The notes under the pieces were generated by a model. That model had not been told where the DNA came from and did not search any database. It was given only the letters and a program-made list of their open reading frames with translations. Below, one piece after another: positions 1-19,463 of a stretch of DNA of 51,722 bases; position 1 is the stretch's first letter; each line of letters opens with the position of its first letter. The position numbers and the translations under genes are program-made. This stretch comes from a virus (lineage: Duplodnaviria; Heunggongvirae; Uroviricota; Caudoviricetes), in IMG/VR virus record IMGVR_UViG_2579778650_000023; one strand, written 5' to 3'.

Positions 1-306
1 CAGAACGGTTCAGATAACCTGATACTTATAAATCGTAAAAAAAACCTTTTTTATCAGAAGATAAGAGATAGAGAATGATTGAACTGTTAAGAATTTAGTT
101 AAAATATAAACTATCAAAGTGCATAATTTTACTTTTTTGGTGACCCAGCTCGGACCTTTGATTCAATCTGGCATAGATATTGGGAAGAGATGAAAAAACC
201 GGAAATCTCAAAAAGTGCGAGGAACTAAACCAAGTGTGCTTACAGTACAAAGACAACTATGATAACCTTTGCTAAGTCAGGTTTTACACTATGGAACAGT
301 TAATAT

Positions 307-1128
307 ATGAGTGCTATAGAAAACCAAGAAACAGTTATACAAGCAGTTAATAGTTTACATCCAACAACGTTGTTTCACTTTACTAAAAATGAAGAGGCAT
401 TCTATAGCATTTTAACAGAACTTTATTTTAAACCTTTCCTTGCCCGTGAACGCATAGTCGGAGTAAAAGGAAGAAGAAATTTCGCAGTACCAATGGTTTC
501 ATTCTGTGACATCAAGCTGTCTCAGATTAAAGATCATAGTGAAAAATATGGTGAATTTGGATTTGGGTTAACAAAAGAATGGGCTGAGAAAAATGATCTC
601 CATCCTGTTCTATACATGAATCAAGGCAGTGAATTATTTTCAAAGTATAATAAAAGAATTAGAAAACTAAAGGATGCGTTAATTCCTCTATGGTCGAAAA
701 GGCATATCCCTGATAATAAAGAGCGTAAGTATTTTGAAAGCCTTAAAGAAGAGTACGCTGACCTTTATAATTTATTACGTTATATGAAAAATTATAAAGG
801 AAAATTAGAAAGGACGAACGAAAAACCCATTGAGAATTATATCTACGCTGACGAAAAAGAATGGAGATATGTACCGCATCCATTTGTTGGCGATTTATGG
901 CCTAGCCTAAATTTAGAGCGAGTGGTGGAACCTAACCAGAAGGCCGTCTTAAGTAAAAAGTTCTCTGAATTTGGTATTAGTTTTTCTTTCGATGACATTA
1001 AATATATACTTGTTCCTGATGATAGCCACATTTCCAAATTGATAACTTGCCTTATGAGTATAAGAAATTATGATCCTTATATAATAAGTAAAGTTTTAAC
1101 GATGGATAAGGTAAAACAAGATTTTTAA
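307..1128 (+). CDS. Hypothetical protein, possible Abi-family (AbiGi-like) abortive-infection/defence protein
   Basis: 273-aa ORF, visibly AT-rich and Lys-rich; N-terminal motif TLFHFTK...FYSIL...FKPF resembles Abi-type proteins as I recall them (unverified); convergent with the giant STAND gene. Confidence 0.5.
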   Translation: MSAIENQETVIQAVNSLHPTTLFHFTKNEEAFYSILTELYFKPFLARERIVGVKGRRNFAVPMVSFCDIKLSQIKDHSEKYGEFGFGLTKEWAEKNDLHPVLYMNQGSELFSKYNKRIRKLKDALIPLWSKRHIPDNKERKYFESLKEEYADLYNLLRYMKNYKGKLERTNEKPIENYIYADEKEWRYVPHPFVGDLWPSLNLERVVEPNQKAVLSKKFSEFGISFSFDDIKYILVPDDSHISKLITCLMSIRNYDPYIISKVLTMDKVKQDF

Positions 1129-1603
1129 CACTTCTACATAGAAATTTCATTAATAAACAAGAAATTAGCTTTCTTGAGGACAACTTTACCTAAAGCTGAA
1201 AAGTGCCAATTAGCAAACTTTCATCCCATAAGCTATGATATAGCACTCACTTTATTGATAAATACCGAGGTATTCATGAAAGGTCAGGTCGATATCGAAC
1301 TCCAAAGATTGATACGGGCGCGGTATAACACCGCGGTAGAAAATTGGAGTGAATGGAAATGGTTAGAAATCGGGCATGGCGTCGTCATCATATATCTCGG
1401 TTAAAATCTAAGAGAAAAACATATCGAATTGTGTTGGCTAAAACTGAAAAAGTTGTAGGGAAAATTTACTGCCCCCCTTGTGCTTGTTCTTGTTATTTTT
1501 GTGGTAATCAAAGAATTCATCACGGAGTGAACATTCAAGAGCAACGAGCTTTGCTGCGTTTTACTGATTGACTTATAAAATATTAATCTTTTCGATAATA
1601 AAA

Positions 1604-1622
1604 GGCTCCAATCCTTGGAGCC
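1604..1622 (-). terminator. Rho-independent terminator downstream of the 1587-aa gene
   Basis: Perfect inverted repeat GGCTCCAA-tcc-TTGGAGCC; on the minus strand the hairpin is followed by TTTTATTATCG; lies between convergent genes. Confidence 0.6.
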
Positions 1623-1665
1623 TAAATTGGAAAAACTCTCATTAAAACTATTATTTTCAACTACA

Positions 1666-4600
1666 TCACAGAATATTTTCCCGTGACATATAACCAACAA
1701 CCGATCCTTTCTCTACCAAAAAATCTAATATTACTAAGACCTCTTCTTTCAACTGTTTGGTTCGTCTAATTCTCTCACGCTCAGTGTTGATATACCGCCT
1801 AACCAAACATTCCAAATAATAAACAGTATCATTTTCCAATTTATTTTCCCATAACTTTTTATTAACCGACAATATTCCTGAAAGCCAGGTTATACCTTGA
1901 TTAAGATAGCAACTGGCAATGTTATTCAATGATTTGGCAAGAGAATATACAGTTGAAGGGCAATGACCCATAGTCCTAGATACATCGCAAAAGAATTGAC
2001 TATTGTTATCTTTAAATGTGTGCCAACCATTTGAATTTTCTTTCCATGGAGATTCAGCAAAAAGGTAACTTTTTATAATTTTATCTACATACCAATACCT
2101 ATCTCCATCCTTGCACAAAGTAACCACTTTATCAAAAAACAAATCCCAAACCTTCCAAAATTTGGTGTAAGTATTTAATCTATCTTCGACGAGAATAAAT
2201 TTTTTAAATAACTCTGAAATAGGCTCTGAACCGTTGAAACCTTCAAGAAAAGGTTTTATATAATCAGGAATATCGCTCACGGGCGCATGAAGCGTAAAGT
2301 AGGCAAATCTTTCCAAGAAAGACTGCCGAAGAGCGTAATCAACTCTATCTTCTCGAACACTTGACAATAGGCTTGTAGAAAATCTTTTAACAATTAAGGA
2401 AACCAATTGCTTATGTTCAATATTGACAGTATCAACTGGAATTAATTGGAAAGCCGTGTTCAAAATATGCAGATCAACTTTATCGATACCTCCCAAATCA
2501 TCTATAGATATTTTATTATCGATGACATTTGATATGCAATGCTTATAGTTATTTAAAAACACCTTATTAATATTTATTTTTTTAATGTCATAGTCTGCTT
2601 GACGATAACTTTCATGAATGATTTTTCTTGAAAGGATTACATATTTTGGCTTTAAAATCAAAAAACCAAACAATAGAGACTGCATATCATCAAAATAGTA
2701 TAGCCATAATTTATGAATCACCATACTAGGAAATACTGAGTAGCGCCCACTTGCCATTCCAATAGAGTGGTCATTAAACAGTGTCAAAAGTAATATTGTT
2801 TTTATAGTCTCCCTTTCGACTGGATAATTATGATAAATCACAGGTAAGGCTGAAATTGCCGAGGTTGTTCCATCTAGCACCTGATAATTATAGCCTTCCT
2901 TCAACGGAAGTTTAGAATACGCTAGAACAATATCTTTACAGTATTCTCTCTCTTCATTATTCAGCTGATTAAAATTCTCTAATAGTAATATAGAACAAAC
3001 GTCTGCTGGTATATTACTGTTTAATAGTCGGAAATCTTCATCCTCCTCCTCATTAAGCTTGTTTATTATTTCTTTGGTCTCTTGTATCGCAATTTGCGGA
3101 TTGTCCTCATACATTCCATAATTCTTATAACGTTCATCCTTTTCTCTTTTATAGCTTGCCCATAGCTTCAGCGTCATATACTTCATATGCTCGGAATTTT
3201 TCTTTATTGCTTCCTCACTATATTGCTTTAGTTTTGGGTCAATCTCAGGATTGAATGATATCTCAATCCCTTCATCTTTCTCCTTAGTAGTTATATTCAT
3301 CTTTCGCCGATCCATTCTTGCCAAGCAGAGCCTCCACGTCTTATCGGCTTCAGTTTCTTGAGCTTCATCTGGAAGCTGATTATAGTATTTGTCGAAAATA
3401 TCCCATAGCACTTGTTGCCTTTCTATGGCATCTTTCTCCGTTACATTTTCACTTCTGAAAATTTGATAATGCAAGGCAAGATTTTCAAGATGAGTATTTC
3501 TATGCACATCATCGCAAGCTTTAATTCTATCTTCTTCGTGCAAAGAGTTTCTGTAATCTGCACCGCCAAAGCCATCCCTGAGGGAGATTAATGAACTTTT
3601 ATGTGTTCTGTCTAGAACCATTCGATTCATATCAAAATGGAAGAAATCCTTTGTTTGGAATAGTACTTTAGCTACATTGAATGTCTTCTCAGGGAATGCA
3701 AGTACAATACTAGTAACTACTGCGGAGATAGAAGCTGACTTGGTATTTCTCAACAAAAAGAGAAGCCAACTTTCCAACACTTTCGAGTCTGCATTTTTAA
3801 AATTCTCAAGAAAAATTTTTTCCAATGCCATATGAATTGATGAAAGTAAGTAGGTAGAGACCTGTGTTCCTCGATATGAGCACCACAGACGATTGCATAT
3901 ATATTGCTTTATAAACTTTCCTTCTTCAATAAAGACATCGACTTCTTCAATTTCGTTTTTAGCAAAGCGGGAGTGGGCAAAACATATCGTTGTCTTGTTC
4001 GTAAAATCAAGAATAAAGTCTATTGTTTTTTTGAACTGTGATTGTAGTAACCAATATATAGGAGTCTGATATGGACTTTCTGGATAATAGTCATGATGAG
4101 ACCTAAATAGACCGAACTCATCTTCAATATCCATATGGTGATAACGTTCGCCTTTTTCTTTAAGTGGCCGATACCAGAACAGATCTGCCAATTGTAGAAC
4201 ATATTCCGGGAGAGATACCCAAACCGGATGTGAATCTAAGTCAGTAAGGATTAAGGTCATAAGATCGAAATATGGGGTACCGTGCTCGTTCCACTTATTT
4301 TTTAGAATCTTAACTAAAATCTCTTCCATTTCAGGTTTAATCATGGCCGCCCCATGAAGAATCGTATGCAGAATATTTTTCTCATTATCCCTTCCGGATA
4401 AATAGACATCCTCATCTATAGTCCATTGATAATATTTTAGGGCTATCAAACTAGATAATCGAGTCGTTTCACCCACTTTGTTTCTTTGATTCCACTCTTG
4501 AATCACTGGAAGTATAAAATTAATATTTCTGAACCCAATTTCATCTAAATTTTCATGGATAAATTGGATCACACTCTGCCAACCAGTTCCCTTAGGCTTA

Positions 4601-6429
4601 GTAAGAACATATTTAATGGAAAGTAGATCTGAATTACTTACACCTAACTGTTTAAGCAGATCGTAATCAACGTCCTTGCAAGCAAGCCTCAATAAGAAAG
4701 TAAGTCTTTTTAAAAGATTCTGGTCACTACTAAGTAAATATCGTTTAAAGTAATTAAAAAATATGCCTGAATTGTCGGAAAGAAGGACAGCTACCCATAA
4801 CTCGTCTTTCCAAAATTTTGATATTCCTTCTCCACAGACTATTTCTGCGATAAAAGGCTTTATGGACTGGTCATCTAAAAGTAATCGTTCAGATATCCAA
4901 TTCCGAAAACTACGGCGAACAGGAAGTGATTCTCCTATCTTTTCGAAGAACTCGTTATTGTTCGCTTTACGGATATAATCGACGGAAATTTTCTTTTCTA
5001 ATGCCCATTCCTCATATATATCATGTGTAATGAAGTAACCAGCAGCTTCATAGCCGACAATTCCGTCTTTAACTAACGCATCTAAAATTCCAGTATCACA
5101 TGTCGGAGAGACAAAAAATTGGCCCTCACTAGCCCGCTGAAAAGCAGTCGCTAAGAAACACTGCTCCCGAGAAGGTTTATTTTTGACGACAATCTTATTC
5201 CAGAGCTTTTCTTTGAAGCTCGCATAATCGATGCTTTCACCGGTATAGAACCTCAGATATTCACTTAGATAAAATGGATTTTTGATTAGTTCTAATAATC
5301 GAACATCTTGAGGAAGGCTAAATCCATTATTATCAGATAACTCTATTAGCTCGTCGCGTTCAAGGTTCTTTATTACTAAGTTTCCAGGAGTTATCTTATA
5401 AATATCTATGAAAGCATAGTTCAGATCTGCCAAGTAGTTGTTACGGGTTGTGAAAATAACCTGCCATTTATCCTTTATTAAAACAGTCAGGAATTCTTTA
5501 AAAGGAACGATATTGGTCAATTCTAAAAGCTTTTCAGCAGAATCTACGACTATGACTTTACGTAATTCGTCTTGATGAGCATTAGAGAAATCGGCTAAGC
5601 CATGCGCACCGAATAGCTCATTAATGCTGTCTTTTTTAAACTCACTAGCCTTAAAGACATAGAAAGGAGTGCATTGTTTTTCAGCTTCATAAATTTTTTT
5701 GATAACTGCTGTTTTTCCAACCCCACCTTCTCCGCTGACGATGACAATTTTTTTCTGAACTAGATTCTCATGTAGAAGTTCAATGCAATGTCGTCTGTCA
5801 ATTTCAATACTTCTGTCTTTGAACTCTATATTGGTTTGAATTTCATATAAAACATTTTCTGTGTGCTTGCGCTTTTCTTCTAATAAATCAAAGATGCTTT
5901 CATTAAGGGAGAAGAAATGTTTTGCAATCTTTTCATTCTCAACTATTACAAACGGTGATTCAAAAAAACTAGCAACTCTCCATACTATTTCGATACCCGA
6001 CTCATATGCTTTCTGATCAACTTCAATTTTTATTTTGGGATCGTTACTATTTCCGACAGTTTCAAAATAATTATCAGCGTTCTTATCGTCTTCAGGCTCA
6101 TGAGACTTTCTCCCCTGCCCCCACTCTTGATTAGTATAGAAAATGATTTTACTTAATCCTGGATAAGCCTTTTTGCTTTTCCCAATCATTTCTATAAGAT
6201 CAGCTTTGTTATCCGACAATTTTGTGTCATAGAATTTAGATTGCCAACCGATAAGTTCATTATCTTTGGTTATTGGATTAGTTTCGATACCAGATTGATT
6301 CTTATATCTAAATATACCTGCGGGTATTTTGAATTCTTGACAGAACAATAAGTAGCAAAACCACTCAAAATTATCTTGAGGATTCTCATTAAATTTAGCT
6401 TTAAAGTTATCCCAGTTTGGTTTGACCAT
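1666..6429 (-). CDS. Large STAND-type P-loop NTPase (1587 aa): N-terminal domain of about 215 aa, NTPase core, about 1200-aa C-terminal region; Avs/AVAST-like antiviral candidate
   Basis: Walker A GEGGVGKT, Walker B-like VIVVDSAEK, STAND-like sensor motif VIFTTRNN; very long C-terminal region with no recognisable catalytic motif; AT-rich; AGGGG Shine-Dalgarno about 9 nt upstream of the ATG at 6429. Confidence 0.75.
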   Translation of the reverse strand: MVKPNWDNFKAKFNENPQDNFEWFCYLLFCQEFKIPAGIFRYKNQSGIETNPITKDNELIGWQSKFYDTKLSDNKADLIEMIGKSKKAYPGLSKIIFYTNQEWGQGRKSHEPEDDKNADNYFETVGNSNDPKIKIEVDQKAYESGIEIVWRVASFFESPFVIVENEKIAKHFFSLNESIFDLLEEKRKHTENVLYEIQTNIEFKDRSIEIDRRHCIELLHENLVQKKIVIVSGEGGVGKTAVIKKIYEAEKQCTPFYVFKASEFKKDSINELFGAHGLADFSNAHQDELRKVIVVDSAEKLLELTNIVPFKEFLTVLIKDKWQVIFTTRNNYLADLNYAFIDIYKITPGNLVIKNLERDELIELSDNNGFSLPQDVRLLELIKNPFYLSEYLRFYTGESIDYASFKEKLWNKIVVKNKPSREQCFLATAFQRASEGQFFVSPTCDTGILDALVKDGIVGYEAAGYFITHDIYEEWALEKKISVDYIRKANNNEFFEKIGESLPVRRSFRNWISERLLLDDQSIKPFIAEIVCGEGISKFWKDELWVAVLLSDNSGIFFNYFKRYLLSSDQNLLKRLTFLLRLACKDVDYDLLKQLGVSNSDLLSIKYVLTKPKGTGWQSVIQFIHENLDEIGFRNINFILPVIQEWNQRNKVGETTRLSSLIALKYYQWTIDEDVYLSGRDNEKNILHTILHGAAMIKPEMEEILVKILKNKWNEHGTPYFDLMTLILTDLDSHPVWVSLPEYVLQLADLFWYRPLKEKGERYHHMDIEDEFGLFRSHHDYYPESPYQTPIYWLLQSQFKKTIDFILDFTNKTTICFAHSRFAKNEIEEVDVFIEEGKFIKQYICNRLWCSYRGTQVSTYLLSSIHMALEKIFLENFKNADSKVLESWLLFLLRNTKSASISAVVTSIVLAFPEKTFNVAKVLFQTKDFFHFDMNRMVLDRTHKSSLISLRDGFGGADYRNSLHEEDRIKACDDVHRNTHLENLALHYQIFRSENVTEKDAIERQQVLWDIFDKYYNQLPDEAQETEADKTWRLCLARMDRRKMNITTKEKDEGIEISFNPEIDPKLKQYSEEAIKKNSEHMKYMTLKLWASYKREKDERYKNYGMYEDNPQIAIQETKEIINKLNEEEDEDFRLLNSNIPADVCSILLLENFNQLNNEEREYCKDIVLAYSKLPLKEGYNYQVLDGTTSAISALPVIYHNYPVERETIKTILLLTLFNDHSIGMASGRYSVFPSMVIHKLWLYYFDDMQSLLFGFLILKPKYVILSRKIIHESYRQADYDIKKININKVFLNNYKHCISNVIDNKISIDDLGGIDKVDLHILNTAFQLIPVDTVNIEHKQLVSLIVKRFSTSLLSSVREDRVDYALRQSFLERFAYFTLHAPVSDIPDYIKPFLEGFNGSEPISELFKKFILVEDRLNTYTKFWKVWDLFFDKVVTLCKDGDRYWYVDKIIKSYLFAESPWKENSNGWHTFKDNNSQFFCDVSRTMGHCPSTVYSLAKSLNNIASCYLNQGITWLSGILSVNKKLWENKLENDTVYYLECLVRRYINTERERIRRTKQLKEEVLVILDFLVEKGSVVGYMSRENIL

Positions 6430-6503
6430 TTAATTATTCCCCTATTTTTTGTAAATAACTGCCCCTACACAGAGAAATGCACCCTCGATATCGTACTCAG
6501 CAA

Positions 6504-6929
6504 CTATCTTCTTTCTCCATCAGAGCGCTCACGGTCAATCTTTGTCAGCTGCGCATTGAGTTGATGTCCTGTCATTCCATGTTTGTATGCATTGTATTGC
6601 CAGATCACAAACTGTTGTTTGTACCTCCGGTTCTCTTCCTTAAGCTCTTCGATTTCGCTTTCAAGATTCACAATCCTAGCGGCTGCAATGTTCAAACTAG
6701 CTGGACGCGGATTTTTGGGGCCACGGCCTTTAAGCGCCTCTTTCTTTGTTTGATAGGCAGTCACTATTGCCCCATGTGCATTAAGGGACTGTCTTGACGG
6801 CAACTTTCCAACCAATGGTTCTGCCGCCTCACAAATTACTGACCAGGACAGTTTTGGTTCCTGCCATCCTCGAATTAGATTCACGATGGCGTTAATGTCT
6901 CTATTGTCCAGATGCTTAGCCAAGGCCAC
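6504..6929 (-). CDS. Small protein (141 aa), fourth gene of the recombinase operon; coiled-coil-like C-terminus (ESEIEELKEENRRYKQ)
   Basis: ORF start overlaps the stop of the upstream recombinase gene (translational coupling); function unknown. Confidence 0.5.
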   Translation of the reverse strand: MALAKHLDNRDINAIVNLIRGWQEPKLSWSVICEAAEPLVGKLPSRQSLNAHGAIVTAYQTKKEALKGRGPKNPRPASLNIAAARIVNLESEIEELKEENRRYKQQFVIWQYNAYKHGMTGHQLNAQLTKIDRERSDGERR

Positions 6930-8949
6930 CTCCTAACAAAGTTGTCAAATCATCTAACATCACAGCTTCTTCACTTTCTTTGCCTTTTTGCTTGATGGCC
7001 GCAATAGACGTCTTTGCGACAACACGGCGAAGCTGGCTGAAATCATTGCCCCGGAGCTTAATCTGGGCACCATTTTCAATGTCTGGATTCTCTAAAATAG
7101 CGACTAACTCACGAAGCCGGGTGACAGTTTTCTTGTGGTATTGATACCAGCGATCAGCCCCCATCTCGCCGCGTTCTACCGCTGCATCAGCAATACAAAA
7201 CATTCGTTCCGACTTCACCAAACGTTTCTTAATTCGATCCAATATTTCTGTATCCTCGCCTTTGATACAAACCTGCTCAGTACAATTGACGCAATCTCGG
7301 AACTTCTCGCAAGGGCCCATGGTGTAATCATGCACGCAGTAGCCATACTCCGTCACATGGACTGCGGCATGATCTAACGTATTGAACTCTTGAATAGTCA
7401 CAGGAAGGTGCTTAGCCACATCTCCAGCAGGCCCAAATAGACCTTTTGAGGGATCGAGGCGTTCAGACATGCCAACCAACTCATATTCAGTCATGTGGTT
7501 GTAAGCTCGATTCTGTTTCATATCTGCCCGACCAGACCACTTGGCAATTTCCAAGTTTGAGAGCCCACCACGCTGAGCTATGGTGTTAAGTAGGTGCCGA
7601 GCTTGGTGCGAGGTTAATTTAACCCGTTCACCGTTTTCAGCATGGTAATTATAGCGATCAAAGATACTGGCATGTTTTCCATTCAAAGTCTCCCGAGGCG
7701 TCAGATCATTATTAAAGAAGTTATTGGTTGGTTTATACAATTCAATCGGTATACATCGGCGATTCCCGTGGAACTGATTTACATTAAGTGCAAACAAAGC
7801 ATTGCTGTACTTAATTCCCTTGTCTTTATCAAACCACGGAAAACCATCAGGCAATCGCGCCATAGCATGGCGCCACAGGCTTTTTAGTGTGTGCGAACCA
7901 TCTTCTTGAGCTAACCCTCGATTAAAGAGAGAAGAACGACATTGTTTTTTGGATTTACAAGCAAGACCGAGAGCCATACAAGACTGTTCCATTGTCAACG
8001 GCTCATCATCAGCGACATCAGGACAGTTAGCATGGCGGTAAAATTTATCCGGGTGTATCTCAATCCACTTGGCCAGCTGTCGAGCATTCTCAGATAACAT
8101 TTTGGTTCTAGCGATAGCTGTTTTAGCAACGCCAACCATTACAGTGGGTATCCATTTAATGCCCCCTTCATAGCCTTTACCTGCAAAGAAACGCCAACCA
8201 TAGCGTTCTATATCTTCGCTATCGGTTTCAAACACCTCACAATCTGCAGGAAGTGCTAACACTTCAGAAATGCGCGAAGGAGCAGACATCAGCATAGCAA
8301 ACACCGATGTTGTAAATATGTCTCTTTCATCCATTGGATCGTTTGCAAAAATTTCCGCAAGCGCGTTGAGGGCAATATCACTCGGTAGTTTCTTTTCCCT
8401 ATTTTTTTTAGCCTCTCTGCCTGTTTTGTTTTTGTCCTCTGCACGCCTAATGGGATTAACCCAATTTTGCACAGCACTTGATACAAGTCGATTTTCAACG
8501 ACAAACTTAGCCAGCCGCTCAATCTCTCGGCCACAATGATATGCAGCACCATCAGAGTAGTGCTGCCTTGCCAATTCAGATGCTTCATCCAGTACTGAAA
8601 TCGACAGACCATCAATATTTGCATTTCCATTTACTTGAATTAAAGCCGCCTCAATCGCACGGAGGGCCTTACTTTCATTCTTTGTCCCTGTGGGATGATG
8701 TCCCTGCTGGTAACGAAAATAGGCTTTGGCGAAATCAATGAACGCAGGGTCTTGTACCTCTCCCTGCATAGGTGTTCGCGTAATAATGCCTAGCTTGGCA
8801 AACACTGTTATGTTTGGCCAAACAGGAGCTTCCCAATTCAGATCGGAACCGAATACAATCAATTGTACTCGGCACTTGGATATGAATACTCCAAGGTTTT
8901 GTGCTGCTGTCAGCGTAGCCTTTGGTTTAAACTGGAAAATCTCAGCCAT
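6916..8949 (-). CDS. Tyrosine recombinase-family protein (third of trio, about 677 aa)
   Basis: C-terminal HQARHLL ... NRAYNHMTEYEL motifs resemble the H-x-x-R and catalytic Tyr of integrase-family proteins; start chosen at ATG 8949 with GGGAG Shine-Dalgarno, overlapping the stop of the upstream gene (alternative start 8994). Confidence 0.6.
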   Translation of the reverse strand: MAEIFQFKPKATLTAAQNLGVFISKCRVQLIVFGSDLNWEAPVWPNITVFAKLGIITRTPMQGEVQDPAFIDFAKAYFRYQQGHHPTGTKNESKALRAIEAALIQVNGNANIDGLSISVLDEASELARQHYSDGAAYHCGREIERLAKFVVENRLVSSAVQNWVNPIRRAEDKNKTGREAKKNREKKLPSDIALNALAEIFANDPMDERDIFTTSVFAMLMSAPSRISEVLALPADCEVFETDSEDIERYGWRFFAGKGYEGGIKWIPTVMVGVAKTAIARTKMLSENARQLAKWIEIHPDKFYRHANCPDVADDEPLTMEQSCMALGLACKSKKQCRSSLFNRGLAQEDGSHTLKSLWRHAMARLPDGFPWFDKDKGIKYSNALFALNVNQFHGNRRCIPIELYKPTNNFFNNDLTPRETLNGKHASIFDRYNYHAENGERVKLTSHQARHLLNTIAQRGGLSNLEIAKWSGRADMKQNRAYNHMTEYELVGMSERLDPSKGLFGPAGDVAKHLPVTIQEFNTLDHAAVHVTEYGYCVHDYTMGPCEKFRDCVNCTEQVCIKGEDTEILDRIKKRLVKSERMFCIADAAVERGEMGADRWYQYHKKTVTRLRELVAILENPDIENGAQIKLRGNDFSQLRRVVAKTSIAAIKQKGKESEEAVMLDDLTTLLGGGLG

Positions 8950-10504
8950 TGGCGATTGCTCCCTGTGGACTAAGCTCTTCACGACGTTTTGCACAACGCA
9001 TGATCACATCTGCCACCGCGATAATGCTGCGATCAAGTATGGCAGCAATCTGGATATCGCCGGTTATCTCTTTCACCCGTTCACGCTCGTTGAGCAGCCC
9101 CTGATAGACATCCTCATGGGGGCCATCCAGCCAAGGCTGGAAATGCATGCAGGTGTAGCAAGGAATAGGAACATTGGCACCACAAAAACCATGCTCCCCA
9201 CAAGTACCTACACCATGGCCTATCTCGGTCCTAATGCGACTGGCAGGGTCGTTACCTCGATGCGCGCCCCTCTCTGAATCGACAAGTACCCCGACAAAGG
9301 CCTGGGCGTATGGTGCTAGTTGGAAGCCAACCGCCTCATCAAGCTTTTTCACATGTTCGGGAATGTTCTTGATGTAAACGCCGGCGTTTTGGGTATCCGT
9401 ATGGTCAAGTAGTTCCGCAATCACCAATTCGCCAAATCCTTCCTTGGCAGCTCGTGTGCCCGTGGTATAGCGAAAACGACGAGCATTGATATGTAATAGC
9501 TCACCAGTACGTTCTGACCGGATATCAGATTTTTCTATGATGTACTGGAGTGTGTTGGTTATCTTTGCTGCGGGAATGTGGAGTTTGTCGGTAGCAAACA
9601 GTTGGCGGAATTCATAAGGAGACTGGACGGTAGCTAACACATCAAGATCTGGAAACAGAGGGATTTGCTGTCGGTCATCTTCCTGCAATTCAAACCCCAG
9701 ACGATTCTCAACCATTGCAATTGCATTCTTTGCCTGAGTGTTCAGAATTACCCATAGTTCTGGTGATATCGCAAAGAGCTTGAAGTTTATTCGAAAAGAA
9801 CTGCTGCGCTGCTTGGCTCGCGGCACATTCAAAACATAGAATGGCTCTCCCTTTCCATTTTTACCGCAAAGCACATCGACTGCATGAAGCAGCGAGATCT
9901 GGATGGGTCGTCGTCCTGTATGACTGATGCTAAGTGCCAAAGCCAACTCCGCTATGGTAATTAAGCTCTTTTCATAAGCCCGAACAGCCCCCTCGTTAAA
10001 CGCTGTCAGCTCATTATCCGTCAGAGGCCCTTCTTGAGGATCCTGACGCTTAACCGCATCTCCCTTACGATTACCCTTCAGCCTCCAGCCATCCAACAAA
10101 CTGATCACATCTTTGCTGATACCGGGATAACCAAGCTGGTGCCAAGTTCGAAGAAAGCCACGTATAGTTGCCAGATACCATTCCGTCGCAGGCAATAGTC
10201 TCGCCCGATAATTAATCAATACCGTATCAGTAATTTCTCTCGCATGAGTCTCTCGCAGCATGTGCTGAAACCGCATAATAATGTTCAGAGTATGAGGAGC
10301 AGATTGAGTAGAAGCATAAAATGCTAGCGTGCGTAGGCAGCCATTGAGCCCCTCACCTGACAAGTAATGGTGAATATCTACAAGAGTGGCGTGGGTATTT
10401 TTATCCAATATCCACGATGTATCATATAAGTGAAAGAAGTAGCCATTAGCCCTAGCACAGATTCGCTCGGACACTAATGCCGGTAGGAACTTACTCGTCA
10501 TCAT
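8942..10504 (-). CDS. Tyrosine recombinase-family protein (second of trio, 520 aa)
   Basis: Integrase-like motifs (HTGRRP..., RFRYTTGTRAAK, ...GVYIK); start overlaps the stop of the first recombinase gene. Confidence 0.6.
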   Translation of the reverse strand: MMTSKFLPALVSERICARANGYFFHLYDTSWILDKNTHATLVDIHHYLSGEGLNGCLRTLAFYASTQSAPHTLNIIMRFQHMLRETHAREITDTVLINYRARLLPATEWYLATIRGFLRTWHQLGYPGISKDVISLLDGWRLKGNRKGDAVKRQDPQEGPLTDNELTAFNEGAVRAYEKSLITIAELALALSISHTGRRPIQISLLHAVDVLCGKNGKGEPFYVLNVPRAKQRSSSFRINFKLFAISPELWVILNTQAKNAIAMVENRLGFELQEDDRQQIPLFPDLDVLATVQSPYEFRQLFATDKLHIPAAKITNTLQYIIEKSDIRSERTGELLHINARRFRYTTGTRAAKEGFGELVIAELLDHTDTQNAGVYIKNIPEHVKKLDEAVGFQLAPYAQAFVGVLVDSERGAHRGNDPASRIRTEIGHGVGTCGEHGFCGANVPIPCYTCMHFQPWLDGPHEDVYQGLLNERERVKEITGDIQIAAILDRSIIAVADVIMRCAKRREELSPQGAIANG

Positions 10505-11753
10505 TCTTCATGTCCTTTGGCAAGCGAGTGCCATTACCTTCCTGCAATGCCAAAGCGGCCTCAAACCCTTTTTGCTGAATGAAACGCTTGTTGTAAGTCG
10601 CTGCAGTTCCCGAACCATCTCTCCAACCCATTAAGTAAGAACGGAGCTGCTCTTGGCGTTCCTCGCTGACTTGCTCATTCATGGCATCCATTCTTTCTGA
10701 AAACTTTCGATTCCATGTATGGCGGAACGAATGCCCTGTCGCTGCATACAATTGTGGTGATACAGCCCTGACCACGGAAAAGATTTTATGATATCCCCCT
10801 TTAGAGATAGGGTTTCCAACTGTTGGCCCTAGCTTATAAGTGACAAAGAGGTAGTCATTTTTCTTTGCATTTCGGACTTTCCGGCGATCTTGGATGATAT
10901 AACTATGTAGTTCTTGAACTAGGGATTCAGCCAATGGCAAGAGCCGGTCTCTCGTTTTAGCATGGGGCTGATTGGTTCTAGAATCAGCTAGCTCATCTGC
11001 TCGCCTAAATATACGGATCCTGTTAGTACTAAAATCAATATCTTGTATTCTGATGTTTAACAATTCCCCACCTCGAATACCAAGATAAAACAGAAGTAAG
11101 ATCATCAGCCGATTGCGACGCTGAACATCTATTGAGAAAGGATTTAAATCTGATCCCGGCTTGATAACTTCAAATAGCGTATCCAATTGCACATCATTCA
11201 ATGACCTGTCTTGCCATTCACTGTTTCTGCGCTTTTTCGACGGTCGACGTATCTTTATGTGCTGCAACATTTCATTGATCTGTTCGACAACGCCCGGTTC
11301 TGCCGTCTTTAAAATATGCATTGCATACCAACCTAAATATTTGGCATATGTTGTCAGCCGGGAATGCAATGTTCCGTTATCAACAGTATCGCTACTCGCA
11401 TCTTCCAACCAAGGTGTAGAAGAAGCAACTAACAGCTTCTTTCCCTGCTTGCGCTGAGCAAAATCCCGCAGATCGTCCAGTTCGTAAGGTTTGAAGAAAT
11501 TTTTGGTCAAAAATCGCTGTTCTAGGTCAATGCCACGATTATCTAAGAAGCGTAGCAGCACAACAAGGTTGCTAGCTGCTGCTAGCATAGTTGAAAAAGC
11601 ATCCCCTCTGTTGCGGATTTGGGTTGTTAAAAAAAGAGTCGGGTAATACACGGGAAGGCAAGAAGAACGATCCACCACCATGCAGTATCGCTCGCCACTG
11701 TCCATGACAAATGTTGTAACCTTGTAGTTATCCTTCATGTGCCCATACCCCAT
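10491..11753 (-). CDS. Tyrosine recombinase/integrase (first of trio, about 415-420 aa)
   Basis: LGIRGGELLNIRIQDID (box I Arg) and GHSFRHTW (H-x-x-R) motifs, C-terminal Tyr region; true start may be the internal Met at 11738. Confidence 0.7.
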   Translation of the reverse strand: MGYGHMKDNYKVTTFVMDSGERYCMVVDRSSCLPVYYPTLFLTTQIRNRGDAFSTMLAAASNLVVLLRFLDNRGIDLEQRFLTKNFFKPYELDDLRDFAQRKQGKKLLVASSTPWLEDASSDTVDNGTLHSRLTTYAKYLGWYAMHILKTAEPGVVEQINEMLQHIKIRRPSKKRRNSEWQDRSLNDVQLDTLFEVIKPGSDLNPFSIDVQRRNRLMILLLFYLGIRGGELLNIRIQDIDFSTNRIRIFRRADELADSRTNQPHAKTRDRLLPLAESLVQELHSYIIQDRRKVRNAKKNDYLFVTYKLGPTVGNPISKGGYHKIFSVVRAVSPQLYAATGHSFRHTWNRKFSERMDAMNEQVSEERQEQLRSYLMGWRDGSGTAATYNKRFIQQKGFEAALALQEGNGTRLPKDMKNDDE

Positions 11754-11828
11754 ACACTTTACATAATTGCAAGGTACACAGTATGTTAGGAAGATATCAA
11801 TTACGATTTGACACTTTTGAGACGCGGC

Positions 11829-11857
11829 AAATAAAAAGCCCCTGTATTAACAGGGGC
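11829..11857 (-). terminator. ssb rho-independent terminator
   Basis: Hairpin GCCCCTG-ttaata-CAGGGGC followed by TTTTTATTT on the minus strand, immediately downstream of ssb. Confidence 0.75.
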
Positions 11858-11896
11858 CTGATAGATAATTAATTACATAAACGTCTTAGGTAAATC

Positions 11897-12433
11897 CTAG
11901 AACGGAATGTCATCATCAAAGTCCATCGGCGGCTCGTTAGACGGCGCTGCCGGAGCGGACTGCTGCGGGCGAGACTGCGCGCCGCCGCTGAACTGATTGC
12001 CACCCTGCGGCTGCTGAGGCTGACCCCAACCGCCCTGCGGCTGACCACCACCGATATTACCACCTGCCGGAGCGCCACCACCCTGACGACCACCCAGCAT
12101 CTGCATGGTGCCGCCAACGTTCACCACGACTTCTGTGGTGTAGCGATCCTGGCCGGATTGATCGGTCCATTTGCGGGTACGCAGCTGACCTTCGATATAA
12201 ACCTGAGAACCTTTACGCAGATATTCGCTGGCCACTTCTGCCAGTTTGCCGAACAGCACAACGCGGTGCCATTCAGTCTGTTCTTTCATCTCGCCGGTCG
12301 CTTTATCACGCCAGGATTCGGAAGTAGCCAGCGTAATGTTGGCAACTGCGCCACCATTTGGCATGTAGCGTACTTCCGGGTCCTGACCCAGATTACCAAC
12401 GAGAATAACCTTGTTTACGCCTCTGCTGGCCAT
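11897..12433 (-). CDS. ssb: Single-stranded DNA-binding protein SSB (178 aa)
   Basis: Translation [39 protein letters not shown]... with Gly/Gln-rich tail and C-terminal DFDDDIPF, characteristic of enterobacterial SSB; the true start is internal to the longer six-frame ORF. Confidence 0.95.
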
Positions 12434-12583
12434 GTTCGTGTCTCCTGAAAAAAATCGTTCTGAATAAGTGTAAACGCGCGATTGTACCATTACCAATAGC
12501 GCTTTTACTATGTTGTGACCTCGGTTCCGGGAAACAAACCTGGCCAGACATTGTTACACAACACTCCGGATAATGCATTCCAA

Positions 12584-12603
12584 TACTGTATATTCATTCA
12601 GGT
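12584..12603. promoter_or_regulatory. LexA (SOS) box in the divergent ssb-uvrA control region
   Basis: TACTGTATATTCATTCAGGT (CTGT-N8 with a degenerate right half) between the divergent ssb and uvrA starts; matches the known uvrA operator. Confidence 0.8.
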
Positions 12604-12686
12604 CAATTTGTGTCATAATTAACCGTTTGTGATCGCCGGTAGCACCATGCCACCGGGCAAAAAAGCGTTTAATCCGGGAAAGGTGA

Positions 12687-15509
12687 ATGGATAAGATCGA
12701 AGTTCGGGGCGCCCGCACCCATAATCTCAAAAACATCAACCTCGTTATCCCCCGCGACAAGCTCATTGTCGTGACCGGGCTTTCGGGTTCTGGCAAATCC
12801 TCGCTCGCTTTCGACACCTTATATGCCGAAGGGCAGCGCCGTTACGTTGAATCCCTTTCCGCCTACGCGCGGCAGTTTCTGTCACTGATGGAAAAGCCGG
12901 ACGTCGATCATATTGAGGGGCTTTCTCCTGCCATCTCAATTGAGCAGAAATCGACGTCTCATAACCCGCGTTCTACGGTGGGGACAATCACCGAAATCCA
13001 CGACTATTTGCGTTTGTTGTTCGCCCGCGTCGGCGAACCGCGCTGTCCGGACCACGACGTCCCGCTGGCGGCGCAAACCGTCAGCCAGATGGTGGATAAC
13101 GTGCTGTCGCAGCCGGAAGGCAAGCGTCTGATGCTACTCGCGCCAATCATTAAAGAGCGCAAAGGCGAACACACCAAAACGCTGGAGAACCTGGCAAGCC
13201 AGGGTTACATCCGTGCTCGTATTGATGGCGAAGTCTGCGATCTTTCCGATCCGCCGAAACTGGAACTGCAAAAGAAACACACTATTGAAGTGGTGGTTGA
13301 TCGCTTCAAGGTGCGTGACGATCTTACCCAACGTCTTGCGGAGTCGTTTGAAACCGCGCTGGAGCTTTCCGGTGGTACAGCGGTAGTGGCGGATATGGAC
13401 GACCCGAAAGCGGAAGAGCTGCTGTTCTCCGCCAACTTCGCCTGCCCAATTTGCGGCTACAGTATGCGTGAACTGGAGCCGCGACTGTTTTCGTTTAACA
13501 ACCCGGCAGGTGCCTGCCCAACCTGTGACGGCCTTGGCGTACAGCAATATTTCGATCCTGACCGCGTGATCCAAAACCCCGAGCTGTCACTGGCTGGCGG
13601 TGCGATCCGTGGCTGGGATCGCCGCAACTTCTATTACTTCCAGATGCTGAAATCGCTGGCAGATCACTATAAGTTCGACGTCGAAGCGCCGTGGGGCAGC
13701 CTGAGCGCGAACGTGCATAAAGTGGTGTTGTACGGTTCTGGCAAAGAAAACATTGAATTCAAATACATGAACGATCGTGGCGATACCTCCATCCGTCGTC
13801 ATCCGTTCGAAGGCGTGCTGCACAATATGGAGCGCCGTTATAAAGAGACAGAATCCAGTGCGGTACGTGAAGAATTAGCCAAGTTTATCAGCAATCGCCC
13901 ATGCGCCAGCTGCGAAGGGACGCGTCTGCGTCGGGAAGCGCGCCACGTTTATGTCGAGAATACGCCGCTGCCTGCTATCTCCGACATGAGCATCGGTCAT
14001 GCGATGGAATTCTTCAACAATCTCAAACTAGCTGGTCAGCGGGCGAAGATTGCAGAAAAAATCCTTAAAGAGATCGGCGATCGTCTGAAATTCCTCGTTA
14101 ACGTCGGCCTGAATTACCTGACACTTTCCCGCTCGGCAGAAACACTTTCCGGCGGTGAAGCCCAGCGTATCCGTCTGGCGAGCCAGATTGGTGCGGGCCT
14201 GGTTGGCGTTATGTATGTACTGGACGAGCCGTCTATCGGCCTGCACCAGCGCGATAACGAGCGCCTGTTGGGTACGCTTATCCATCTGCGCGATCTCGGT
14301 AATACCGTGATTGTGGTGGAGCATGACGAAGACGCAATTCGCGCCGCTGACCATGTGATCGATATCGGTCCTGGTGCGGGTGTTCACGGCGGTGAAGTGG
14401 TCGCGGAAGGTCCACTGGAAGCGATTATGGCGGTGCCGGAGTCGTTAACCGGACAGTACATGAGCGGTAAACGCAAGATTGAAGTGCCGAAGAAACGCGT
14501 TCCGGCAAATCCGGAAAAAGTGCTGAAGCTGACAGGCGCACGCGGCAACAACCTGAAGGACGTGACGCTCACGCTGCCAGTCGGTCTGTTTACCTGCATC
14601 ACAGGGGTTTCAGGTTCCGGTAAATCGACGCTGATTAACGACACACTGTTCCCGATTGCCCAACGCCAGTTGAATGGTGCGACCATCGCCGAACCGGCAC
14701 CGTATCGCGATATTCAGGGGCTGGAGCATTTCGATAAAGTGATCGATATCGACCAAAGCCCAATTGGTCGTACTCCACGTTCTAACCCGGCGACCTATAC
14801 CGGCGTGTTTACGCCTGTGCGCGAACTGTTTGCGGGCGTACCGGAATCCCGTGCGCGTGGTTATACGCCAGGACGTTTCAGCTTTAACGTCCGTGGCGGG
14901 CGCTGCGAAGCCTGTCAGGGCGACGGTGTGATCAAAGTAGAGATGCACTTCCTGCCGGATATCTACGTGCCGTGCGATCAGTGTAAAGGTAAACGCTATA
15001 ACCGTGAAACGCTGGAAATTAAGTACAAAGGCAAAACCATCCACGAAGTGCTGGATATGACCATCGAAGAGGCGCGTGAGTTCTTTGATGCCGTACCTGC
15101 ACTGGCGCGTAAGCTGCAAACGTTGATGGACGTTGGCCTGACGTACATTCGCCTGGGGCAGTCCGCAACCACACTTTCTGGTGGTGAAGCCCAGCGCGTG
15201 AAGCTGGCGCGTGAGCTGTCAAAACGCGGCACCGGGCAGACGCTGTATATTCTCGACGAGCCGACCACCGGTCTGCACTTCGCCGATATTCAGCAACTGC
15301 TCGACGTACTGCATAAACTGCGCGATCAGGGCAACACCATTGTGGTGATTGAGCACAATCTCGACGTGATCAAAACCGCTGACTGGATTGTCGACCTGGG
15401 ACCAGAAGGCGGCAGTGGCGGCGGCGAAATCCTCGTCTCCGGTACGCCAGAAACCGTCGCGGAGTGCGAAGCATCACACACGGCACGCTTCCTCAAGCCG
15501 ATGCTGTAA
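12687..15509 (+). CDS. uvrA: Excinuclease ABC subunit A (940 aa)
   Basis: [19 protein letters not shown]..., two ABC ATPase modules ([18 protein letters not shown]; LSGGEAQR signatures), zinc-finger Cys clusters. Confidence 0.97.
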
Positions 15510-15514
15510 TCGTT

Positions 15515-15545
15515 AAGGCCGCTTTCTGAGCGGCCTTTTCCTTTC
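15515..15545. terminator. Bidirectional rho-independent terminator between convergent uvrA and yjbR
   Basis: AAGGCCGC-tttctga-GCGGCCTT followed by TTCCTTT. Confidence 0.7.
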
Positions 15546-15900
15546 AGAGTTGTACCAGCAATTTACGCTTTTCTTCCGGTAGTAAATTCACTGCCTGCTG
15601 ATAAGACGCATCCACCAGATAATAGATTTGCGAATCCGGCAGCGAACCGTCGAGATACACGGTGCTCCAGTGCGCTTTATTCAGATGGCGGCTAGGACGC
15701 ACATCGCTGTGCTGCTGACGTAGCAGCTCCGCCAGCTCCGGGCTGGTTTTCAGCGAAACAGCTGGGCGATTTTCTACTTCTTTCACCATCGCAAACAGTA
15801 CATCTTCCACTTTGATCTGCGTCGCTTTCCAGTCGTTATGCACGCTCTGTTCTGCGCCTGGTTTTGCCATGCAATATTGTAGCAACTCCGAAATGGTCAT
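15544..15900 (-). CDS. yjbR: YjbR family protein (118 aa)
   Basis: Translation MTISELLQYCMAKPGAEQSVHNDWKATQIKV... and conserved position next to uvrA. Confidence 0.85.
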   Translation of the reverse strand: MTISELLQYCMAKPGAEQSVHNDWKATQIKVEDVLFAMVKEVENRPAVSLKTSPELAELLRQQHSDVRPSRHLNKAHWSTVYLDGSLPDSQIYYLVDASYQQAVNLLPEEKRKLLVQL

Positions 15901-15903
15901 TTT

Positions 15904-16320
15904 TTACTCCCCTTGTAGTGTCGCGATGATGCGACGCGATCCGCCGTGGATGCGATGTTCCCCCAGCCAGATGCCTTGCCAGGTGCCGGTCTGAATACGC
16001 CCTTTATGTACCGGCAATACAAGCGATGTTCCCAGCATTGAGGATTTGATATGAGAAGGCATATCGTCTGCTCCCTCATAGTCATGCTCATAATTTCCGT
16101 TGTCGGGAACGGTGCGGAGGAAAAAACGCTCCATGTCGTGGCGTACGGTGGGATCGCAGTTCTCATTAAGTGTCAGAGAGGCGGAGGTATGTTGCAGCAA
16201 CAGATGCAGTAAGCCGATGTTAACGCGCGGCATATCAGCCAGCTGATTCAGAATTTCATCCGTTACCAGATGAAACCCACGAGATTTGGCGCTAAGCGTG
16301 AGCGTCTTTTGATACCACAT
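15904..16320 (-). CDS. yjbQ: YjbQ/UPF0047 family protein (138 aa)
   Basis: Translation [23 protein letters not shown]...; conserved gene order. Confidence 0.85.
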
Positions 16321-16390
16321 GTGCTGCTCCTTGATAAAACTCTCTTAATCAGTTTGCAGCAAGACAGCGAAAGGATAAAGGTGTGATTAA

Positions 16391-16425
16391 AAAAACAGCA
16401 TTCGGGAGAGCGTCACGCTCTCCCG
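16391..16425 (-). terminator. Putative terminator downstream of aphA
   Basis: Palindrome CGGGAGAGCG-tca-CGCTCTCCCG with a T7 run a few nt downstream on the minus strand. Confidence 0.5.
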
Positions 16426-16430
16426 CTCTG

Positions 16431-17348
<918 letters not shown>

Positions 17349-17544
17349 TTAATTTTACGTTTATTATGATGAATCCTCGGCAAATGAGCGAAATTTGATA
17401 GAACATTTATCTGCTGTACGATTTAATGAACTTAATGATACAGCATTACAAAAACAATCGAAGTTTATAAAGATGATTTCTGATTGACCAGCCCCCTACC
17501 CTACAATGGTGATTAATTTTATTACTCGCGATGGAGATGATGAT

Positions 17545-18048
17545 ATGAATATATCATATGTGAATAGCAACAAAACGACATCTTTACCTGTTGAGCTAGA
17601 TGCACTAAATAATAAAGATATCTCTTATGCCAAAGATTTTTCTTATGCCAAAGATTTCTTTTTATACATAGAAACACAGTTAAAAATTGCAAAAGATTTT
17701 TGTAGACCTGGAGAAGAAGTATCAAGTTCTATTGCAAGTAAAGTTTTTCACGCATTTATTGATTTAGTTAACAAAATCAGGGGTAAGAAAGACTTTATGT
17801 ATATTTGCACGCTTTGCTGTTTTGCCGAGGAGGTTAAAGGTGATTATTCTCATTACAGGACCTTTTTATTTGATATTGGTAATCAATATAAGGTTAAACT
17901 TACACAAAGCGGAAAAAAAGAGCTCTCTTTAACTTTAGAATTTAACGATACTATAATTGAATCTCAGAAAGTCACAGGCAATAAGGCAAAGCATATTCTT
18001 GAGGATATAGAAAAATTCTATCGTAACAAACCCGATACTTATTATTAA
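17545..18048 (+). CDS. AT-rich hypothetical protein at the yjbS position between aphA and tyrB (about 167 aa)
   Basis: ORF on the opposite strand to its neighbours; GGAG Shine-Dalgarno before ATG 17545 (the six-frame ORF starts at 17506); AT-rich with an upstream AT-rich region; contains an in-frame 18-bp tandem duplication. Confidence 0.55.
   Translation: MNISYVNSNKTTSLPVELDALNNKDISYAKDFSYAKDFFLYIETQLKIAKDFCRPGEEVSSSIASKVFHAFIDLVNKIRGKKDFMYICTLCCFAEEVKGDYSHYRTFLFDIGNQYKVKLTQSGKKELSLTLEFNDTIIESQKVTGNKAKHILEDIEKFYRNKPDTYY
17623..17658 (+). repeat. In-frame 18-bp tandem direct repeat (2 copies, 17/18 identical) inside the hypothetical ORF
   Basis: tcttatgccaaagatttt / tcttatgccaaagatttc, encoding SYAKDF twice. 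Confidence 0.9.
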
Positions 18049-18269
18049 ATTTAATAATAGTTAGATGTGCAGAAATTATTACTCCACCCAAAAAAACAGG
18101 ATAAGGAATTCCAGATAATTAGGATAAGCTTAACAATAAAAGAACTAATAACGTTTATTATCTCTCACGTAGAACGATGGCATCAAAAAAATCATCTATA
18201 AAGAAAGAGTGAAAGCGACGACAGTTTAATTTCACTGCAGGCTGGGTAGCTCCAGCCTGCTTTCCTGCA

Positions 18270-19463
18270 TTACATCACCGCAGCAAACGCCTTTGCCACA
18301 CGTTGTACATTTGCCGTATTTAACCCGGCGACACACATGCGACCGCTGGCGATGAGATAGACACCAAATTCTTCACGTAGTCGGTCAACCTGAGCGGCAC
18401 TTAAACCGGTATAACTGAACATGCCGCGCTGATTAAGCAGATAATCGAAATTGCGTTCTGGCATCTCTGTGCTTAATACCTTCACCAATTCCTGACGCAT
18501 TGCCAGAATGCGAGTACGCATCTCTTCTACTTCCGCCAGCCAGCTGGCTTTCAATGCCTCGTCATTCAGCACTGCAGCCACCACCTGCGCACCAAAATTC
18601 GGCGGGCTGGAGTAGTTGCGGCGAACTGTTGCTTTCAATTGCCCCAGTACGCGGCCAGCGGCTTCGGCATCTTCACACAGAACAGAAAGTCCGCCGACGC
18701 GCTCGCCGTAAAGGGAGAAAATTTTCGAGAACGAATTGCTCACCAGAGCGGGTAATCCAGCGCTGGCAATGGCGCGAATAGCGTAGGCATCCTCTTCCAT
18801 ACCGGCACCAAATCCTTGATAGGCAATATCGAGGAATGGAATAAGCTCGCGGGCTTTGAGAATTTCAATCACCGCATCCCACTGATCATTAGTGAGATCG
18901 GCACCCGTTGGGTTGTGGCAACATGGATGCAGCAACACAATACTGCGGGCAGGTAATGTTTTCAGCGTCGCCAACAGGTCATTAAAGCGCACGCCGTTAG
19001 TCGCTTCGTCATACCAGGGGTAAGTACTCACTTCGAATCCAGCCCCGGCGAATATTGCTACGTGGTTTTCCCAGGTAGGATCGCTGACCCAGACGCCTGA
19101 TTCCGGGAAGTAGCGTTTCAGGAAATCCGCGCCCACTTTCAATGCCCCTGAGCCGCCAAGGGTTTGAATGGTTGCTACGCGCTGTTGTTGCAGTACTGGA
19201 TGGTCCGCACCAAACAGCAGCGGCGCAATGGCATGGCGATAGCTGTTAAGCCCTTCCATCGGTAAATAAAGCGAAGCGCCATGAGGCTGCGCATTCAGGC
19301 GCGCTTCCGCCTCCGCCACGGCTTGCAGTTGTGGAATAATTCCGTCTTCGTTGTAGTACAGACCGATACTTAAATTCACTTTGTCGCTGCGAGGGTCTTC
19401 TTTAAAACGCTCCATAAGCGTAAGAATCGGGTCGCCAGCGTAGGCGTCAACTTTTTGAAACAC
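18270..19463 (-). CDS. tyrB: Aromatic-amino-acid aminotransferase TyrB (397 aa, GTG start)
   Basis: [25 protein letters not shown]... and PLP-aminotransferase motifs ([16 protein letters not shown]); the six-frame ORF extends 14 codons upstream of the expected start. Confidence 0.93.

Follow-up and report, generated by a model that had tools for sequence, protein, structure and literature searches.

Our analysis concerns a gene close to the start of the 51,722-nucleotide IMG/VR virus record IMGVR_UViG_2579778650_000023 (Caudoviricetes), the whole of which is referred to below as the window. We suggest that this AbiGi-like open reading frame (ORF), at positions 307..1128 on the + strand, is a functional stand-alone member of the AbiGi family (PF10899), carried as co-cargo with avs4 on an island of the GInt type. 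We further suggest that its product is an independent, single-gene anti-phage effector of the abortive-infection type, with an ADP-ribosyltransferase (ART) fold nearest to that of DarT, and that it is neither an 'antitoxin' nor a subunit of Avs4. We put the probability of this combined reading at about 0.55. The family label itself is already present in RefSeq. Less widely recognized is the large partner-less variant within AbiGi, which has a predicted ART-like fold and resides in defence hotspots.

The ORF begins with ATG and encodes 273 aa. Its GC content is 32.7%, compared with 50% for the flanking core genome, and lysine is the most frequent residue of the protein (10.6%), in agreement with an earlier, sequence-only reading of the window that had described an AT-rich, Lys-rich ORF at these coordinates. 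Within its predicted ART-like fold the protein features a conserved His24, Glu48, Tyr81 and Lys161, and a conserved Glu183-x-Glu185-Trp-Arg motif.

AbiGi family membership and the question of a partner

Sequence comparison makes membership of the AbiGi family practically certain. The sequence-only reading had called the protein AbiGi-like and had proposed profile searches as a check, and both models return this family: Pfam AbiGi PF10899 with E 6.4e-26 (91.9 bits against a cut-off of 22.4), and PADLOC AbiGi with E 3.5e-45 (152 bits, residues 19-273). The protein also matches phrog_13416 (E 1.3e-97). Lactococcal AbiGI was recovered by tblastn against plasmids with 26.3% identity across residues 17-273 (94% of the protein; E 6e-11), such that homology extends over the whole length, and alignment with the archetypal L. 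lactis AbiGI contains 21 invariant columns. Features common to both proteins include Glu48, a PM-x-FCD motif (62-68), Tyr81-Gly82, Lys161 and Glu183-x-Glu185-Trp-Arg, and both genes lie on mobile DNA. The N-terminal peptide that had attracted the earlier call, TLFHFTKNEEAFYSILTELYFKPFLARE, corresponds to residues 21-48. The LFHFT motif, taken there as a mark of AbiGi, is indeed typical of the partner-less clade described below, but it does not extend to the lactococcal archetype, which has LFNFM.

The score against the NCBIfam AbiGI equivalog model NF042957 falls far below its cut-off (47.7 bits vs 300), and the protein is therefore a distant member of the family rather than an AbiGI equivalog; its host is moreover Gram-negative, unlike that of lactococcal AbiG. 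The family assignment is not new, since RefSeq already annotates WP_001272931.1 as an 'abortive infection system antitoxin AbiGi family protein'. Despite the strong PHROG match, tblastn with the protein gave no match in deposited phage genomes; its homologues are carried by prophages and plasmids.

In Lactococcus, Bacillus and Enterococcus, abiGii (PF16873) starts 1-2 nt 3' of abiGi. The gene under study differs in that it has no abiGii: tblastn with lactococcal AbiGII gave no significant match across the 51.7 kb of the window (best E 0.66), which upholds the earlier remark that no partner was visible there. That remark had in mind a nucleotidyltransferase-like protein, which would belong to AbiE (AbiEii) and not to AbiG; AbiE genes have been widely mislabelled as AbiG (Dy et al. 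2014, PMC3985639). The same reading had also looked for the partner upstream, whereas abiGii in real AbiG operons lies directly downstream. Inspection of the sequence beyond position 1, which it had proposed, identified the core gene yjcB as the upstream neighbor. Given that this neighbor is core and that the carrier island ends at window position 8, with the window starting on the left attachment site, an AbiGii upstream of the window is ruled out.

To place the gene among its relatives, 80 loci of the partner-less AbiGi clade were compared, each from a different species. An AbiGII homologue was found in 0/80. At approximately half of the loci a co-oriented ORF lies no more than 200 nt away, but the 76 tightly linked co-oriented neighbors form no family, the single cluster among them being of size 2, and a search for a neighbor conserved across the 80 loci found none. 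With no AbiGII in the window or in these loci, and with neighbors that form no family, the clade behaves as a stand-alone gene. The earlier reading had left the gene as either stand-alone or partnered; these data settle it as very probably the former. The clade is also large: a profile search (E <= 0.001) returned at least 3816 representative clusters at the 50% identity level, nearly all of them single-domain proteins of ~250 aa, spanning Proteobacteria, Bacteroidota and other phyla.

Individual candidates for a hidden partner were assessed in turn. A 70%-identical homologue occurs on phage-plasmid-like E. coli plasmids of ~112 kb, where a co-oriented gene for a 403-aa protein begins 27 nt after it (locus positions 7849-9060 on plasmid pR7-S2K78-1). 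This protein belongs to phrog_30092 and features a weak restriction-endonuclease-like N-terminus (HSDR_N_2, E 0.008), and could serve that homologue as a partner specific to its lineage. It is absent beside the 66%-identical homologue from Klebsiella, which lacks any adjacent ORF. The 403-aa protein was rejected as a divergent AbiGii (no Pfam AbiGii match, non-significant BLASTP) and as a relative of Avs4, to which it is unrelated. Neither a decayed AbiGii nor the 403-aa protein could be recognized by similarity in the spacer between the AbiGi-like gene and avs4 or in the rest of the window. Two ORFs of the spacer (76 and 72 aa) and an upstream antisense ORF of 53 aa were likewise discarded as hidden partners, as they are confined to copies of this island.

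Predicted fold and conserved residues

A confident AlphaFold2 model of the protein, built from a 41-sequence alignment (pLDDT 89.8, pTM 0.84), has a core that is predicted to adopt an ART fold closest to DarT. The top Foldseek match is DarT, at weak significance (E 0.06, probability 0.80). Foldseek against viral structures gave nothing meaningful, and sequence and profile searches of the PDB returned no matches. The likeness to DarT does not extend to the sequence level, where the DarT Pfam model PF14487 was unmatched by the query or its 41 relatives even at E <= 10. The sole recurrent secondary Pfam match among the relatives is DUF2971 (PF11185), a separate family predicted to be DarT-like ARTs, which matched 9/41 with a best E of 0.031, below Pfam thresholds. 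A published survey of ARTs reports significant similarity of DUF2971 to both AbiGi and DarT, and counts AbiGi among the known ART-like families.

The AbiGi-like protein possesses an N-terminal aromatic-His-aromatic-Thr strand motif and a late, conserved acidic motif of catalytic type. DarT features a comparable aromatic-His-aromatic-Thr strand and a late acidic catalytic motif, and DarTG is a phage-defence system. The two proteins differ in that the model of the AbiGi-like protein has an additional helical insert (~109-157) and a C-terminal alpha/beta extension (~205-273). The systems also differ, since no DarG-like macrodomain antidote was recognized among the genes of the island.

Residue conservation was counted across 325 proteins of the orphan clade. 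His24 of the LFHFT motif is present in all 322 sequences aligned at that position, and Phe66, Tyr81 and Lys161 are each invariant (325/325). Glu48 is found in 323/325, Glu183 in 321/325 with Asp in the remaining 4, Glu185 in 324/325, Trp186 in 323/325 and Arg187 in 324/325, while Arg47 is found in 181/325. Read from motif order and conservation, the succession of a first-strand His, a Tyr and a Glu-x-Glu is that expected for an ART of the H-Y-E type.

The orphan clade differs in this respect from AbiGi proteins that are paired with AbiGii. At the position of the invariant His24, the paired proteins from Lactococcus, Bacillus and Enterococcus have Asn, Lys and Asn, respectively. All three also differ at Thr26, Ser65, Tyr163 and Ala181, and retain Glu-x-Glu-Trp-Arg. 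The pattern could mean that paired and orphan AbiGi proteins have diverged in function, but with three paired sequences it is a lead rather than a rule.

The carrier island and the company of homologues

The first 11.9 kb of the window (1-11905) comprise a complete island of the GInt type, with three recombinase-type genes and a small gene followed by cargo. The AbiGi-like gene is the outermost cargo gene and avs4 is the other main cargo, and the junctions and gene order described here thus bear out the earlier suggestion that the AbiGi-like gene and a STAND gene share one mobile island. That STAND gene (1666..6429, - strand, 1587 aa) is avs4, encoding an AVAST type 4 STAND NTPase/nuclease by PADLOC (2345 bits), by the NCBIfam equivalog (2059 bits against a cut-off of 1500) and by RefSeq. 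As had also been noted from the sequence, the two genes are convergent; 537 bp separate them.

In strain MIN9 the locus reads soxS, pdeC and yjcB, then the AbiGi-like gene (+), avs4, the 141-aa and 692-aa genes and two integrases (all -), and then ssb and uvrA. Compared with the empty site of K-12, homologous sequence extends up to window position 8 and picks up again where ssb ends. The left attachment site, attL (1..8, CAGAACGG), is TCAGAACGG minus a T that lies just outside the window, and represents a remnant copy of the original 3' end of ssb. The right attachment site, attR (11897..11905, CTAGAACGG), was located by comparison with the K-12 junction and overlaps the last codons of ssb, which ends at 11897. 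The imperfect direct repeats that flank the island, TCAGAACGG and CTAGAACGG, share the 7-bp core AGAACGG, the second copy of which lies at 11899-11905. Because attR brings a new TAG stop, the C-terminus of SSB (...DIPF) is unchanged. Published GInt islands 'preferentially' insert at the end of ssb and leave its product unaltered (Bardaji et al. 2017, PMC5385486). Matched to that description, the island fits GInt in its gene order, its repeats and its insertion at ssb. The yjcB-ssb interval is itself a recognized hotspot for E. coli defence islands, described as 'integration hotspot 39', which in other strains holds Detocs and a dGTPase (PMC11728103).

The mobility genes are consistent with ginABCD, in which three consecutive recombinase-type genes and a small fourth gene occupy one end of the element and cargo lies beyond. 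All four are on the - strand. The ginA-like gene (10491..11753, 420 aa) encodes a tyrosine recombinase by Pfam (Phage_integrase, E 9.8e-15) and RefSeq, and the ginB-like gene (8942..10504, 520 aa) a site-specific integrase by its RefSeq product, with no Pfam match at E <= 0.01. The third gene after the two integrases (6916..8994, 692 aa, with a slightly later start in RefSeq) is a ginC-like, degenerate tyrosine recombinase gene; it has no Pfam match and is annotated 'hypothetical', as GinC often is according to its published description (PMC5385486). The ginD-like gene (6504..6929, 141 aa) fits ginABCD by position and size and lacks a Pfam domain, as published for GinD. The likeness to the GinABCD of Pseudomonas is drawn from the published description, and the cargo here differs in being of anti-phage type.

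The window is E. coli DNA. Its first 1700 bases were found in 359/5426 complete E. coli genomes (~7%) and in some plasmids. The island with its AbiGi-like gene also occurs on IncF plasmids and in E. ruysiae, Kalamiella and Salmonella. Two island alleles of the AbiGi-like gene share 97.2% nucleotide identity and differ by 15 synonymous and 8 non-synonymous changes, which corresponds to a dN/dS of 0.12. None of the 8 amino-acid changes falls at an invariant column. Together, the low dN/dS and the sparing of invariant columns argue against a decaying relic; almost every one of 374 E. coli records moreover has the gene intact.

Several carriers show particular arrangements of the island. With its AbiGi-like gene, avs4 and the recombination genes, it is found in the leading region of IncF conjugative plasmids such as pSJ_82 of E. 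coli (NZ_CP011065.1, locus 9001-18819), where it adjoins DUF905, ParB-like and psiB genes. Presumably it sits there at the plasmid's own ssb gene, and such an insertion, if confirmed, would let the island move between cells. Strain EC0430 has three copies, one on the chromosome and two on plasmids, one of which is heavily degraded. In plasmid NZ_CP122931.1 an insertion sequence (IS) lies within the AbiGi-like gene itself.

The company kept by homologues is largely of defence type. Ten large, tightly linked neighbors were sampled, and six are defence-type: HsdR and HsdM flanking one AbiGi gene, a UvrD-nuclease and a methylase, another HsdR, and an LmuB-like ATPase. Two of the others are housekeeping genes and two have no assigned role. 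One homologue adjoins a Cap4-nuclease/SMC (Lamassu-like) cluster and a resolvase. Rare fusions join AbiGi to an HNH nuclease, to tandem DUF1508 (YegP-like) domains or to a second AbiGi domain; the fusion with an N-terminal HNH nuclease, on a metagenome contig (locus 5001-6236), has HsdS on one side and DUF4268/SLFN-AlbA genes on the other, within a type I restriction-modification island. Further homologues are found past the lysis genes at one end of a prophage, beside a CI-type repressor and on phage-plasmid-like replicons.

A 41%-identical homologue was also observed in an E. coli P2-like prophage (locus 4171-6759), in the slot between the tail-fibre-assembly and tail-sheath genes, where two co-oriented genes (126 and 242 aa) come before it. 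This slot is a classic prophage defence hotspot.

Possible roles of the gene and local features

Taken together, the family and its genomic context make a defence role for the AbiGi-like gene probable, if by no great measure. Phage infection would in this case trigger the protein, which would then use NAD+ to ADP-ribosylate either nucleic acid, in the manner of DarT, or protein, and this modification would block phage replication or transcription. Lactococcal AbiG, for comparison, is triggered by the major tail protein and influences both phage transcription and replication (2026 review). ART chemistry as such is suggested by the structural model and remains tentative, a possibility that we rate as somewhat short of likely.

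A number of observations weigh against the reading of the gene as a self-sufficient ART effector. No macrodomain antidote was recognized among the genes of the island, and a DarT-like toxin normally requires an antidote such as a macrodomain; given that none is seen, either auto-inhibition or a non-toxic activity would be implied. The placement of His24, Tyr81 and Glu185 at an NAD+ site is drawn purely from motif order and conservation. The published ART survey puts AbiGi in the R-S-E clade, as opposed to the H-Y-E-like pattern described here, although Arg47 is conserved in no more than 181/325 orphan-clade sequences, and the 2026 review reports no significant structural matches for lactococcal AbiGi. 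All experimental data on AbiG, including its confirmed anti-phage activity, come from the two-gene lactococcal system, and neither AbiGi nor AbiGii of that system is toxic in E. coli (Dy et al. 2014, PMC3985639). The latter result also leaves the toxin and antitoxin labels of AbiG without experimental support. Finally, two of the ten sampled neighbors are housekeeping genes, as described above.

Physical association with avs4 raises the alternative that the AbiGi-like protein is an accessory of Avs4, acting as a regulator, as a guard when Avs4 is inhibited or as a modulator of its toxicity, within a two-component system. In E. coli the association is complete: 374 records have this avs4 and 374 have an AbiGi allele of >=95% identity. 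Both genes show the same two allele classes, ~3% apart, and the pair is retained in E. ruysiae, Kalamiella, Salmonella and IncF plasmids. However, a single island that spreads as a unit predicts exactly this pattern, and complete co-occurrence is therefore not independent evidence of coupling. The genes are convergent and so are not co-transcribed, and IS elements (of the IS1, IS2 and IS3 families) lie in the spacer between them in several strains. Beyond the island the two genes part: Avs4 is found at 2/80 AbiGi loci, both of which are this island, the 70% and 66% AbiGi homologues occur without Avs4, and neither tblastn nor profile search finds an AbiGi gene in the vicinity of diverged Avs4 homologues (41% and 34% identity). 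Avs4 is moreover described as a self-contained sensor-effector that tetramerises on, and is activated by, the phage portal protein, and PADLOC and NCBIfam both model it with a single gene. We consider an accessory role improbable, and conclude that the AbiGi-like gene and avs4 are co-cargo and not a two-gene system. A partner might otherwise be needed but variable and non-homologous between lineages, with AbiGi serving as the module of many two-gene systems. The co-oriented 403-aa protein 27 nt after the 70% homologue would fit such an arrangement, as would the half of the 80 loci with a close co-oriented ORF and, in the window, an unannotated, Cys-rich 72-aa ORF in the AbiGi-avs4 spacer (1353..1571, + strand). 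The latter starts 225 nt 3' of the AbiGi-like gene, is co-oriented with it, includes the peptide …CPPCACSCYFCGNQR… and matches the phage family phrog_4499 (E 1.2e-14). Against this, the neighbors are mutually non-homologous, many loci, including that of the 66% homologue from Klebsiella, have no adjacent ORF at all, and the 72-aa ORF is seen only in copies of the Avs4 island and beside no other AbiGi homologue. Moreover, 4/4 nucleotide differences in this ORF between the two island alleles are non-synonymous, so that its coding status is uncertain, and the ORF could be a small gene that is either decaying or evolving fast. A variable partner thus seems to us quite improbable.

Two further alternatives deny the gene a part in defence. 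Its role might lie in island maintenance or addiction, in competition between mobile elements, or in regulation by ADP-ribosylation of a host protein; AbiGi-like genes are always on mobile elements (GInt islands, prophages and plasmids), no defence phenotype is known within the clade, and the housekeeping genes among the tight neighbors would sit comfortably with such a role. This explanation is unlikely, as the archetype of the family is an experimentally confirmed anti-phage system, neighbors are mostly defence genes at sites that are known defence hotspots, and an addiction toxin would need an antidote, of which none is seen. That the gene is an inert relic, either an 'antitoxin' whose abiGii partner has been lost or a scaffold that has a degenerate ART fold and no catalytic activity, would accord with the 'antitoxin' label given to AbiGi by Pfam and RefSeq and with the low score against the NCBIfam equivalog. 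A relic is nonetheless very improbable: the dN/dS of the gene speaks for purifying selection, thousands of partner-less representatives retain the His/Tyr/ExE-W-R set at >=99% conservation, no remnant of AbiGII is present in the window, and the labels that inspired the idea lack an experimental basis.

The reading of this gene as an independent single-gene effector can be extended to the family, more speculatively. Partner-less AbiGi proteins, with their at least 3816 clusters, might constitute a widespread single-gene anti-phage family of self-contained, DarT-like ARTs that dispense with a separate antidote; intramolecular inhibition, exerted by either the helical insert or the C-terminal domain, would keep them inactive until a phage protein activated them. 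The classical lactococcal protein would represent a derivative that lacks the His and became reliant on AbiGii, and the 'antitoxin' label would be wrong family-wide. We regard this wider proposal as rather doubtful.

To our knowledge, PADLOC and DefenseFinder call AbiG only if abiGi and abiGii co-occur, and an orphan AbiGi defence enzyme, if real, would therefore be missed by current tools. If the proposed role is correct, ~7% of complete E. coli genomes (359/5426) carry an uncounted second defence gene beside Avs4, and the 'antitoxin' annotation spread by Pfam and RefSeq is misleading. ADP-ribosylation would also provide a mechanistic handle on AbiG, which the 2026 review lists without a recognizable fold. 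Should the gene prove inert or merely accessory, it would be an ordinary annotated member of its family. In practical terms it offers a cheap, well-defined, 0.8-kb single-gene candidate with obvious point mutants (H24A, E185A).

A consensus scan gave a weak sigma-70-like promoter candidate, TTAAAA-17-CATAAT (99..127, + strand), ~180 nt 5' of the start of the AbiGi-like gene; sites of this kind are no more numerous than expected from shuffled sequence. No structured RNA of the island was matched in Rfam at E <= 1 (window 1-12000). On the - strand, 43 nt 3' of the avs4 stop, the consensus scan and reading of the sequence identified a hairpin with a perfect 9-bp stem and, after it, a T-run (1603..1623), which is likely the terminator of avs4.

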